Shown: positions 15,533-17,934, counted from the stretch's first letter. The stretch: 52,604 bases of DNA from Candidatus Margulisiibacteriota bacterium (GCA_034723395.1 JAYEOW010000006.1:1-52604), one strand, 5' to 3'. Notes: generated by a model from the sequence alone, not told the origin. Numbers and translations are program-made.

Positions 15533-16905
15533 TATTTAATCTCCAGCTTTACAATCTCTTTGGTCTTCGGCGTAACCTTGGCCCGTTCATCCATTTGTAA
15601 TCCCGCAATCCAAATTATTTTCCCTCCACTTTCGAGGATCGGGACCAGATCACGTTGATCGGCCGGTATTTTATTATCGACAAACAGGTCCTGGACCTTT
15701 TTTGTCCCCGTCATTCCCAGCGGATTAAATTTATCTCCATCCGAACGGTTGCGAATGGTGATCTTTTTCCCCAGCACGGCATAATCGACATAAATCATAT
15801 TTTTAGAATTTGATAAATCCGTGTCCTTTACAATTTCCGCATTAATTTGTTTGCCAAGCTCACAAATATTTACCGATCCAGGGATAGTCAACAGATAACA
15901 AAATGACCCTCCTCCGGATAAAACCGGCTTTTCCCCGCTAATCGTTAATACCCCCTGGCTCCCCGAAGCAAAGATCCCCCCCGGCAGATGCAATTCCCAA
16001 CTTTCAGTATCATTTAATTTATCCCCGATATCTTTTATATGAACAAAAGAGACATCAATAAGATCCCCTTTTATTTTCTCGATAGCACAGCGCACCACCC
16101 TTCCCTGGATCGCCCCCTCAAGCCCTTTTAATTTTAACAGCTCTAATTTAAGCTCATTTTCGTCAGTAGAAACAATCATCTCTTTTAAATACTCATCTGC
16201 TTTTTTTTCGAGATAATCACTATCTTCGGTCAAAAGAAGGATGGTCTGTAAAATAATCTCTTTTATGTTCAAATTATAAAGGCGCAGCTGCGGGACCAAT
16301 TTCATCCTTACCCGATTACGCAGATACTTGGATTCATAATTGGTATAATCCCGCCGCGGGACCAGTTTTATACTGCCGACATACTCTTCGATCTCTTTGC
16401 GCCAGTTTTTGATCATTGGCCGGATAATTTTCCCCCGCTTAGGGGTTATCCCGCATAACCCTTTCAATCCCGCCCCGCGCAGCATCCGCATCAAAAATGT
16501 TTCAACATTATCATCTGCGGTATGGCCGACCGCGATTTTATCAGCCCCTATTTGTTTGGCAACCCTTTCAAAAAAATTATATCTAGCAACACGGGCAGCA
16601 GCCTCTAATCCTTTCTTTTCCTGGTTCGCCATCGCCTGCACGTCACATGCCTCAGCGGTAACCGGGATCCCCAGCCTGGAAGATAACTCCTGGACAAATT
16701 TCAGGTCCAATTCGGCATCTCCGCGCCGGAGCATATGGTTAAGATGGGCAACATGCAGATCGAGATCAAACTCCTCTTTTATGGAATGCAAAAGATTAAG
16801 CAGCGCGGTAGAATCTACCCCCCCGGATACCGCGATCAACACACGATCTCCCGGAGCTAATAATTCGTATTCTTTGATGGTCTTAATAAATTGATCTCTT
16901 ATCAT
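15532..16905 (-). CDS. tilS: tRNA(Ile)-lysidine synthase
   Basis: AVSGGVDS PP-loop, GHTADDNVETFL, YLRNRVR, C-terminal TilS domain. Confidence 0.95.
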   Translation of the reverse strand: MIRDQFIKTIKEYELLAPGDRVLIAVSGGVDSTALLNLLHSIKEEFDLDLHVAHLNHMLRRGDAELDLKFVQELSSRLGIPVTAEACDVQAMANQEKKGLEAAARVARYNFFERVAKQIGADKIAVGHTADDNVETFLMRMLRGAGLKGLCGITPKRGKIIRPMIKNWRKEIEEYVGSIKLVPRRDYTNYESKYLRNRVRMKLVPQLRLYNLNIKEIILQTILLLTEDSDYLEKKADEYLKEMIVSTDENELKLELLKLKGLEGAIQGRVVRCAIEKIKGDLIDVSFVHIKDIGDKLNDTESWELHLPGGIFASGSQGVLTISGEKPVLSGGGSFCYLLTIPGSVNICELGKQINAEIVKDTDLSNSKNMIYVDYAVLGKKITIRNRSDGDKFNPLGMTGTKKVQDLFVDNKIPADQRDLVPILESGGKIIWIAGLQMDERAKVTPKTKEIVKLEIK

Positions 16906-17087
16906 AATAATTCAATTAAATAACGGAACGAAAAAAATGTTAGAAACAGCAAAACCCAGGCAAAAAGCGCCTTCTCCCCATTCCGGCGCACGAATCCGTT
17001 ATTCTTTTTCTCAGTAAGTACAATATAAAGCGCCGGAAACCCAAATAAGTAGGCAGAAAAAACCAGACCTCTATCTCTAATACGCAT
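16902..17087 (-). CDS. Small membrane protein, possibly truncated
   Basis: 61 aa with two hydrophobic segments; stop overlaps the tilS start (ATGA). Confidence 0.55.
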   Translation of the reverse strand: MRIRDRGLVFSAYLFGFPALYIVLTEKKNNGFVRRNGEKALFAWVLLFLTFFSFRYLIELL

Positions 17088-17125
17088 TTTCTTTTCCTAA
17101 AATAATAATGGCGGCGAGTGGATTC

Positions 17126-17215
17126 TCCCGATTTCCTTATCATTCTAATACAATGTTTTTCGGGATCCCGACCGAAGTCCCGAAGGGATTCCGGGATTCC
17201 TTCGGAACGTCGGGA
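17126..17215. repeat. Two tandem TCCCGA...TCGGGA hairpin elements (40 and 50 bp)
   Basis: 17126-17165 and 17166-17215, inserted at TTC|GAA of the outer tRNA T-loop. Confidence 0.85.
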
Positions 17216-17247
17216 GAACCACTGACGCAGCGGGTATGAGCCGCTTG

Positions 17248-17360
17248 TCCCGATGTCGTAACTGTATTGCCGGGAGACGGACTCGAACCGTCGACACAAC
17301 GGGTATGAGCCGTTTGCTCTAACCAACTGAGCTATCCCGGCAATACAACGACACTAGGGT
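17248..17360. mobile_element. Hairpin element carrying an intact tRNA between its arms
   Basis: Left arm TCCCGATGTCGTAACTGTAT, right arm AATACAACGACACTAGGGT (degenerate inverted repeat). Confidence 0.6.
17268..17341 (-). tRNA. tRNA-Met(CAT), elongator-like (Ile2 not excluded); no encoded CCA
   Basis: GCCGGGATAGCTCAGTTGGTTAGAGCAAACGGCTCATACCCGTTGTGTCGACGGTTCGAGTCCGTCTCCCGGCA folds into a full cloverleaf. Confidence 0.93.
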
Positions 17361-17374
17361 CCTCACCAACTGAG

Positions 17375-17440
17375 TCCCGACGTTTCGACTTCGTCGAAAG
17401 TCGGGATCCCGATTTTTTGCCGAAGGCAAAAACATCGGGA
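17375..17440. repeat. Two tandem TCCCGA...TCGGGA hairpin elements (32 and 34 bp)
   Basis: 17375-17406 (TTC loop) and 17407-17440 (GAA loop), inserted at AG|CT of the outer tRNA D-stem. Confidence 0.88.
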
Positions 17441-17466
17441 CTACCCAGCCCTGACATGAGATTTTT

Positions 17467-17518
17467 AGGATAACATACCTGAAAAATATTTGCAATAATA
17501 TAGGGGCAGTGCTAAAAT
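17467..17518. promoter_or_regulatory. Divergent sigma-70 promoters sharing one palindromic -35 box
   Basis: TTGCAA at 17490-17495; 17 nt to TG-extended TAAAAT (17513-17518, +) and 17 nt to TG-extended TATCCT (17472-17467, -). Confidence 0.65.
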
Positions 17519-17541
17519 AGCTTGCTTAGGAGGGTTGTTTT

Positions 17542-17934
17542 TTGGTTGAGAACGTAAAAATAATGGTGGTAGATGATGAACCTTCGGTGCTGGAATCATT
17601 TAGGATGATCTTGGAAATAAAGGACTATTCGGTAGACACTTTTCCCGATGGCCCATCTGCCGTTTCCAAACTCGAAAAGGGAAAATACGACATCTGTTTT
17701 GTCGATTATAAGCTCCCCGGGATGGACGGTTTACAAGTACTAAAAAAGGTAAAAGAGATCGATCCAACGATCGAAGTGATCGTGGTTACCGCTTACGCCA
17801 GTGAAAAATCACAATCAAGCGCGATCCAACTTGGCGCGCTTGAATATTTGAGAAAACCGTTCCTGATGGATGAGATCTATGAGCTAGTCGAAAGAGGCCT
17901 GCGCAAAAGAAAAAGCGCAAAGGTGGAAAAATGA
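17542..17934 (+). CDS. Single-domain response regulator
   Basis: IMVVDDE, FVDYKLPGMDG, VTAY, YLRKPF; TTG start with AGGAGG SD. Confidence 0.92.
   Translation: MVENVKIMVVDDEPSVLESFRMILEIKDYSVDTFPDGPSAVSKLEKGKYDICFVDYKLPGMDGLQVLKKVKEIDPTIEVIVVTAYASEKSQSSAIQLGALEYLRKPFLMDEIYELVERGLRKRKSAKVEK

Follow-up and report, generated by a model that had tools for sequence, protein, structure and literature searches.

How does a complete tRNA gene come to lie among the pieces of another tRNA gene, and what are the short palindromes that are found at the break points? These questions are raised by 315 bases, 17126-17440, of a 52.6-kb window (i.e., the whole stretch of DNA that was analysed, 52,604 nucleotides from a Candidatus Margulisiibacteriota bacterium). 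The 315 bases are the wreck of an ancestral tRNA(CAU) gene whose function now rests with the tRNA enclosed in it. The explanation that we favor, with a probability of roughly 0.6, is that a lineage-wide family of hairpins wrecked the tRNA gene, that the inner tRNA replaces it, and that an Ssn-like nuclease spreads the hairpins via repair. The features of the locus are listed below, with the strand where one is assigned; genomes are denoted by G-numbers, where G000 is the assembly studied.

17109-17125, minus strand: 3' fragment of the outer tRNA, positions 57-73, GAATCCACTCGCCGCCA; matches the G003 allele at 16/17 nt
17126-17165: AT-rich unit of the CATT..AAGGAA class, 40 nt; weak fold, z -1.2
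17166-17215: GC-type hairpin unit, 50 nt; fold dG -26.1, z -2.1 (moderate)
17178-17196: smaller TCCCG..CGGGA unit, TCCCGAAGGGATTCCGGGA, nested inside the 17166-17215 unit
17216-17247, minus strand: outer tRNA fragment, positions 25-56 (anticodon arm with CAT, variable loop, 5' half of the T arm); 97% identity to the uninterrupted tRNA of G032
17248-17361, minus strand: tRNA-bearing unit, 114 nt; fold dG -54.2, z -6.0, arms paired
17267-17342, minus strand: intact inner tRNA(CAU) gene (ARAGORN; Rfam RF00005, 69.4 bits)
17362-17374, minus strand: outer tRNA fragment, positions 11-24, D arm, CTCAGTTGGTGAG; read from the sequence
17375-17406: GC-type hairpin unit of the 32-nt class, TTC triloop; fold dG -19.6, z -4.2
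17407-17440: GC-type hairpin unit, 34 nt, GAA/TTC triloop; fold dG -18.5, z -5.1
17441-17450, minus strand: 5' fragment of the outer tRNA(CAU), positions 1-10, GGCTGGGTAG; all 10 nt agree with the start of the uninterrupted tRNA in G006, G008 and G034
17467-17495, minus strand: presumed ancestral tRNA promoter (TTGCAA, 17 nt, TATCCT), assigned by eye, upstream of the outer 5' fragment

The five units cut the ancestral minus-strand tRNA(CAU) gene into four pieces, with breaks at 10/11 (TAG|CTC), 24/25 and 56/57 (in the T loop, TTC|GAA). When the four outer pieces are joined by their coordinates they form a 72-nt tRNA(CAT) cloverleaf in which no base is missing or doubled, and the junctions TTC|GAA and TAG|CTC run uninterrupted in intact orthologues, which bears out the claim of the first-pass annotation that the units insert precisely and without target duplication. 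The outer acceptor stem pairs at only 5/7 positions (the mismatches are t.c and g.g) and its two strands match different alleles, i.e., that of G006, G008 and G034 for the 5' piece and that of G003 for the 3' piece; the outer gene therefore reads as a patchwork relic. The inner tRNA is the only one that ARAGORN and Rfam detect at this locus; by census, the assembly has just three intact CAT tRNAs, of which it is one. Judged from the sequence, the inner tRNA(CAU) gene is the working copy and the outer pieces are a relic. The neighbors of the locus are tilS, a small membrane protein and response regulators. The layout of the presumed promoter also precedes the uninterrupted tRNA in relatives; at the locus of the window, a simple scan listed only plus-strand sites. 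A Logan contig of run X1, produced by an independent assembler from a run that is probably the source sample itself, spans 16800-17800 with 0 differences, so that a quirk of the original assembler is unlikely. An alternative joined form of the locus was not seen in the contigs of the one public run (DNA) that contains the region, where contigs drop rare variants.

The pattern TCCCGAN{20,50}TCGGGA has 5 matches in the window, all of which fall within 17126-17440, where 0.23 would be expected, and 0/100 shuffled sequences reach 5. The junction word CGGGATCCCG, at which two units abut, is found twice in the window (0.11 expected). The observation of five units is thus far above chance, and most of what had been noted about them at first reading is found in the sequence, i.e., GAA/TTC triloops in two units, one AT-rich unit, one nested unit, one unit that holds a tRNA, and the head-to-tail abutment, which is seen both in the window and across the family. 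The sizes of 32-113 bp given there hold except for the tRNA-bearing unit, which is 114 nt long. The units had also been said to share only their 6-bp termini; the interiors are indeed variable, but the constant part is TCCCG + N ... N' + CGGGA, and subfamilies share more than that. Judged by fold z-scores, hairpin formation is strong in the two triloop units, moderate in the nested unit and weak in the AT-rich one. The 32-nt class is built from 7 bp, a 1-nt bulge, 7 bp and a triloop. The tRNA-bearing unit begins with TCCCGA at its left end and has a degenerate right end, TAGGGTC; its two complementary arms of ~20 nt prolong the acceptor stem of the enclosed intact tRNA(CAU). A search of Rfam at a permissive threshold gave no match for the hairpins. 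The possibility that the AT-rich units act as promoters was considered and dropped, since a simple scan found no sigma-70-like site inside the units of the window.

The units are members of a class-wide Margulisbacteria hairpin repeat family. The assembly contains 29 copies of CGGGATCCCG, 14 of which join two abutting hairpin units according to a reading of the flanks. The abutting-pair pattern has 13 copies in G000 and 28 in G004 and is present in 31/41 related genomes; across the phylum it is found in 41/146 genomes, i.e., in 41/65 within the class and in 0/81 outside of it, and a control with the reversed pattern gave 0 in every genome. The family that the first-pass annotation proposed, which stood or fell with further copies beyond chance, is therefore upheld. 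The genome-wide expression suggested there, TCCCGA.{5,150}TCGGGA, is less discriminating: most of the long ones among its 62 matches lie in ORFs and look like chance, and it is the abutting pair that provides the specific signature. From G000 and the stored loci 84 distinct paired units were collected, 40 of GC type and 44 of AT type. The 32-nt bulged hairpin class comprises at least 12 different inner stems with the architecture kept, and an AT-rich CATTA..AATGG class forms a second subfamily. The stems covary and the 32-nt class is constant in length; a role as RNA would explain the covariation too, which counts against the favored explanation. By flank reading, 6 of the 14 pair junctions of G000 are located in tRNA fragments, and 7 of the 14 are neither in tRNA fragments nor beside a GIY-YIG gene; this latter number also weighs against the favored explanation. 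Several pairs are intergenic, next to the ends or starts of genes, and insertions at the T-loop position 56/57 recur in many different tRNAs.

Some of the copies in G000 are found in particular surroundings. One hairpin pair lies in the spacer ~25 nt past the 3' end of the 16S rRNA gene (C28:3980-4033), and a 72-nt pair is located at the extreme 3' end of an ABC-transporter-like ORF, with in-frame readthrough to a later stop (C4:65219-65290). At C22:12620-12720 a pair of T-arm fragments is split by a hairpin pair that is 99% identical to that of the tRNA-Asp relic on contig C12; ARAGORN lists no intact tRNA on C22.

The state of the same locus before insertion can be seen in relatives. At the syntenic locus a single uninterrupted tRNA(CAT) without units is found in 10/10 relatives examined (L002-L006 and L008-L012), and also in G032 (L014), in the conserved order response regulator, tRNA, small membrane protein, tilS. 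The nested form occurs in G009, G005 and G025, where a tRNA-bearing insert is found at the 24/25 point too, with other arm sequences. What is left of the outer tRNA in G005 and G013 is truncated or decayed. Against their reading as relics, the outer acceptor stem of G009 pairs fully. The outer tRNA-Val pieces of G025 are identical to the inner gene, which also counts against the favored explanation; this identity could reflect selection on the outer copy.

Gain of the units is most readily seen in G017, where 4/4 pair sites are empty in the congener G028, with flanks that are 84-95% identical; one of these sites is empty also in G016 and G020. Every pair site of G017 lies within a tRNA gene, i.e., two tRNA-Ala genes and a tRNA-Pro gene, interrupted at the D-loop sequence CAG|CT, and the initiator tRNA gene, interrupted after position 12-13. 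Each of the gained blocks (81-122 bp) combines a hairpin pair with a short spacer and with part of a further copy of the tRNA concerned, and each gain is arranged such that one intact tRNA remains. Because the two tRNA-Ala blocks have this spacer in common, the block moves as a unit. The locus of the window is built like these gained blocks, on both sides of the inner tRNA. More generally, an intact copy is found beside the interrupted tRNA in 15/17 such loci read (the window, G009, G005, G025:C8, G025:C3, G013, G006, four in G017 and 6 further GIY-YIG loci), the two others being the C22 fragment and the tRNA-Asp array of C12, which is cut off by the end of its contig.

Insertions are found in protein genes as well. 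The coaX gene of G004 carries a 72-nt hairpin pair in frame, which is extra compared to the G000 orthologue, and in metH of G010 a 64-nt pair, also extra compared to G000, is part of a 799-codon frame that is open only with the pair. No target duplication is seen at the T-loop, D-arm or coaX site, though inverted termini are present, i.e., the units lack the duplications that characterize MITEs. The in-frame pairs of coaX and metH, the mismatched outer acceptor and the filled and empty sites together indicate that the hairpins are DNA insertions, not introns. The variable cargo suggested at first reading, in one case a whole tRNA gene, and the gain and loss of units between close relatives are thus both observed.

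A candidate for the nuclease that would act on the hairpins is found among small GIY-YIG ORFs, which are present in 38/41 related genomes. In all of the relatives' loci that were read (11/11), the GIY-YIG ORF follows a broken copy of a tRNA whose intact version begins directly 3' of the ORF; the broken copy carries TCCCG..CGGGA units in 9/11 and, in the other 2/11, a CCCCG..CGGGG hairpin in place of the anticodon arm. On contig C12 of G000, three 81-aa GIY-YIG ORFs alternate with four hairpin-split 5' copies of tRNA-Asp. Three observations count against the favored explanation: the 52.6-kb window holds no GIY-YIG nuclease gene, the number of nucleases in a genome is only weakly correlated with that of hairpins (Spearman 0.40 among related genomes), and there are exceptions such as G035, with 3 GIY-YIG genes and 0 pairs, and G010, with 2 pairs and no GIY-YIG match. 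The protein P0001 consists of a lone GIY-YIG domain (Pfam gives only GIY-YIG), in which Tyr5, Tyr16 and Glu62 are spaced like Y6, Y17 and E64 of SsnA. Because its only solved relatives in the PDB are UPF0213 proteins, a placement outside cd10448 is possible, i.e., P0001 may belong to the UPF0213 branch, which is likewise a point against the favored explanation.

A few further observations concern the GIY-YIG loci themselves. The tRNA-Asp/GIY-YIG tandem array (C12:1-1350, locus L035) runs off the contig end, and among the 46 tRNAs of the assembly tRNA-Asp is the only species that is lacking; a search of the assembly for an intact 3' end of tRNA-Asp found none, where the array ends at the contig edge. 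An HNH endonuclease gene lies directly upstream of this array (C12:1350-1860), as is also the case in G018 (L043). In L045-L048 (G035, G038, G023 and G028) the 17-nt anticodon arm of the broken tRNAs is replaced, at equal length, by a YCCCG-7nt-CGGGR hairpin. A distant GIY-YIG ORF, 39% identical to P0001, is located just downstream of tRNA-Gln (G000 C39:15626-16028); it has no TCCCG units, and other GC-rich repeats are found around it.

The combination of hairpin repeats and a small nuclease gene has a described counterpart. The Ssn proteins are single-domain GIY-YIG nucleases that bind hairpin repeats (NTS/SRM, Neisseria dRS3) as single-stranded DNA (Chenal et al. 2025, PMC11893778). As described there, the cut is made upstream of the hairpin, RNA and duplex DNA are not acted upon, loops may be extended, and ssn genes are usually flanked by the repeats; in Neisseria, NTS are proposed to control uptake or recombination of single-stranded DNA (PMC11893778). 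The family described here is similar in that it consists of 20-50 nt hairpin repeats in many copies, clustered in arrays, with free loop content, that flank a tiny lone GIY-YIG gene; such flanking repeats are found at C12 of G000 and at 9/11 of the relatives' GIY-YIG loci, outside the window. Short units such as TCCCGCAAAGCGGGA, TCCCGCGAAGCGGGA and TCCCGCCAGAGGCGGGA share with dRS3/NTS (ATTCCCGCGAAAGCGGGAAT, core ATTCCCGC..GCGGGAAT) the palindromic core TCCCGC..GCGGGA, where most longer ones have just TCCCG..CGGGA. In contrast to the Ssn/SRM repeats, the upstream GTC tag is spaced differently or is absent here, and it is tRNA genes, duplicated or split, that enclose both the nuclease gene and its hairpins; the word "tRNA" occurs 0 times in the main text of PMC11893778, and its Supplementary Data 4 contains no Margulisbacteria genome. 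The SRM search motif, HGTCWYN(0-2)YYVSBRHN(0-5)WNVSBRGN(0-2)RNCYNB (PMC11893778), has 7 matches in G000 as compared to 5-10 in five shuffled genomes, and 0 of the matches contain a TCCCG..CGGGA unit, which is a further point against the favored explanation. Taken together, the hairpin family may work like, and may belong to, the Ssn/SRM kind.

From these comparisons a sequence of events can be outlined. Five TCCCG-N...N'-CGGGA palindromes would have split the outer gene at 10/11, 24/25 and 56/57, with nothing lost or duplicated, and the unit at 24/25 would have introduced a complete tRNA(CAU) gene, which its stem carries at the tip. The hairpins would be the cis sites of a putative Ssn-like nuclease, which binds them as single-stranded DNA and nicks alongside. 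The resulting break would be repaired, by homing or gene conversion, from a donor that contains hairpins and a piece of tRNA. Such repair would spread cassettes that bear the nuclease gene as well as nuclease-less ones, such as the locus of the window. Within tRNA genes, the hairpins would last only at sites where one tRNA stays intact thanks to a replacement copy, be it full or partial.

A more specific form of this scheme, which we consider possible but put forward tentatively, is that the hairpins are the mobility sites of a self-repairing homing element for tRNA genes and are nicked at the hairpin base by an Ssn-like GIY-YIG enzyme. The content between the stem halves would then travel along, here a whole tRNA gene and elsewhere a spacer, and the invaded tRNA gene would be regenerated from the tRNA copy of the element itself. 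It is conceivable that tRNA genes are targeted since the antisense T arm (GCGGGATTCGAA) resembles half of the hairpin site. Homing genes with comparable behavior are known: SegB of phage T4 is a free-standing GIY-YIG homing endonuclease the gene of which is located in a tRNA gene cluster, and the mobile ORF of mitochondrial atp6 in Allomyces brings a replacement gene end. Here, too, a nuclease gene resides beside or inside the target, and a partial copy carried by the element keeps the target whole while the displaced part becomes a relic. The nucleases of the SegB and atp6 type, however, have DNA-binding domains and no known hairpin repeats, whereas the protein found here has 81 aa and hairpins mark the break point. 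If true, this form of the scheme would establish self-repairing homing elements as a new class and would provide the biological role that Ssn nucleases have outside Neisseria.

The repeats could instead serve the host, as transcript stabilizers, tRNA processing stems or marks for uptake or recombination of single-stranded DNA, and be kept by selection rather than by selfish spread. This idea partly overlaps the favored explanation, and it accommodates the covarying stems and constant length of the 32-nt class, the covariation between genera of the arms around the inner tRNA, the intergenic pairs beside gene ends or starts, and the modulation of Neisseria transformation by NTS/Ssn (PMC11893778). 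We consider it unlikely, given that most relatives run the same locus without units, that sites are gained and lost between congeners, that units are found inside protein-coding frames and dead tRNA pieces, and that the simple scan found no sigma-70-like promoter in the window's units.

A link to the mobility of REP/REPIN-type repeats by RAYT or IS200-like Y1 (HUH) transposases had been suggested in the first-pass annotation. The likeness is apparent, in that REP/BIME/REPIN repeats form paired short hairpins in mosaic clusters without target duplication; moreover, Y1_Tnp genes are found in 27/41 relatives, and G004 has the highest number of both pairs (28) and Y1 matches (8). However, the presence of Y1 genes does not follow that of the pairs: among the 41 genomes 20 have both, 11 only pairs, 7 only Y1 and 3 neither (odds ratio 0.78; Spearman 0.21, p 0.19), and in G022 (91% complete, 5 contigs) 9 pairs are found without a single Y1 match. 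The sole Y1_Tnp match in G000 is a truncated 81-codon piece, the 4 best Y1 genes are without flanking units, and no conserved GTAG tag is seen by eye at the unit ends. The suggested link thus found no support in co-occurrence, and this mode of spread is highly improbable.

Still harder to maintain is the view that integrase-driven islands left the fragments behind in tRNA genes as attL/attR-type scars, and that the hairpins, as palindromes of unrelated origin, have drifted into neutral DNA. Serial 3' fragments after an intact tRNA, like tandem att scars, are found in G025 (tRNA-Arg) and G032 (tRNA-Pro), but the gained blocks are only 81-122 bp and contain no integrase, a pair is located at the tRNA break point in 4/4 G017 sites, in the two pair sites of the window and in the other relic loci read, and the T-loop insertions at 56/57 recur in many tRNAs.

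The least credible alternative, i.e., that the hairpins are RNA-level introns, where the outer tRNA is functional after their removal and religation and the inner tRNA is freed by RNase P and RNase Z, would fit the precise, duplication-free interruptions at loop and stem positions (similar to those of archaeal multi-intron tRNAs), the presence of RtcB in G000, the stem covariation, the paired outer acceptor of G009 and the identical tRNA-Val pieces of G025, but is at odds with the mismatched outer acceptor of mixed allelic origin in the window, the truncated or decayed outer copies of G005 and G013, the 0 matches to the splicing endonuclease PF01974 in G000 (97% complete), junctions that continue the stem without the bulges of a BHB-type tRNA intron, in-frame pairs in coaX and metH, where precise excision would break the metH frame, and the intact copies beside interrupted tRNAs. 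In addition, SsnA is described as inactive on RNA (PMC11893778).

Returning to the hairpin family spread by a putative Ssn-like nuclease, its insertion behavior can be compared with that of other small repeats. Rickettsia palindromic elements (RPEs) are likewise small palindromes that, in the accounts cited here, have no known dedicated transposase and are found between genes, in frame in proteins and in RNA genes; they are reported in frame in 19 protein genes and also in tmRNA and M1 RNA genes (PMC2229807). The same spectrum is seen here, with in-frame pairs in coaX (72 nt) and metH (64 nt) and units in tRNA gene copies. RPEs differ in their length of 105-146 bp and in their termini, and the sequences are unrelated as far as seen; the splitting of tRNA genes beside a replacement copy is not reported in the RPE accounts of PMC2229807 and PMC3733652. 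The Neisseria repeat dRS3 and the elements RPE-4 and RPE-6 are grouped as CGTC REPs, for which no transposase is known according to the description by Di Nocera et al. (PMC3733652). In organelles, too, there are small elements of one or two hairpins that spread through a genome, i.e., the double-hairpin elements of Allomyces, which lack flanking duplications (PMC2800124), the GC clusters of yeast mitochondria and the RHEs of sponges (PMC2800124, PMC4478555). These elements differ in that they reside in eukaryotic organelles, have unrelated sequences and have no known nuclease partner.

A description of bacterial hairpin-split tRNA genes with replacement copies was not found in literature searches. 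We know of no explanation, over two decades, for the spread of the CGTC-type palindromes and RPEs. In the lineage studied here, filled and empty sites can be told apart cleanly, both target and product are defined (the D and T loops of tRNA genes in the one case, a split relic and a regenerated tRNA in the other), and one hairpin unit has a whole tRNA gene as its cargo. The mechanism of mobility thereby becomes testable with oligonucleotides and one 81-aa protein. Such work would bear on the Ssn nucleases and their hairpin repeats, described in 2025, for which a role outside Neisseria was left open (PMC11893778). For annotation, the family explains strings of tRNA fragments, tRNAs missing from MAGs and odd in-frame inserts in essential genes.

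Repeats of another family, built as CCCGAGCGAAGC..GAGTCGAGGGG, were noticed as well (G000 C28:4060-4110; the ends of contigs C4, C7, C19, C40 and C50; L030:640-680); they are located at several contig ends, in the spacer that follows the 16S rRNA gene, and in the outer tRNA-Val of G025, at its T loop. Finally, the tmRNA of G000 (C50:28727-29140) has, according to ARAGORN, an unusually long predicted tag peptide of 28 residues.
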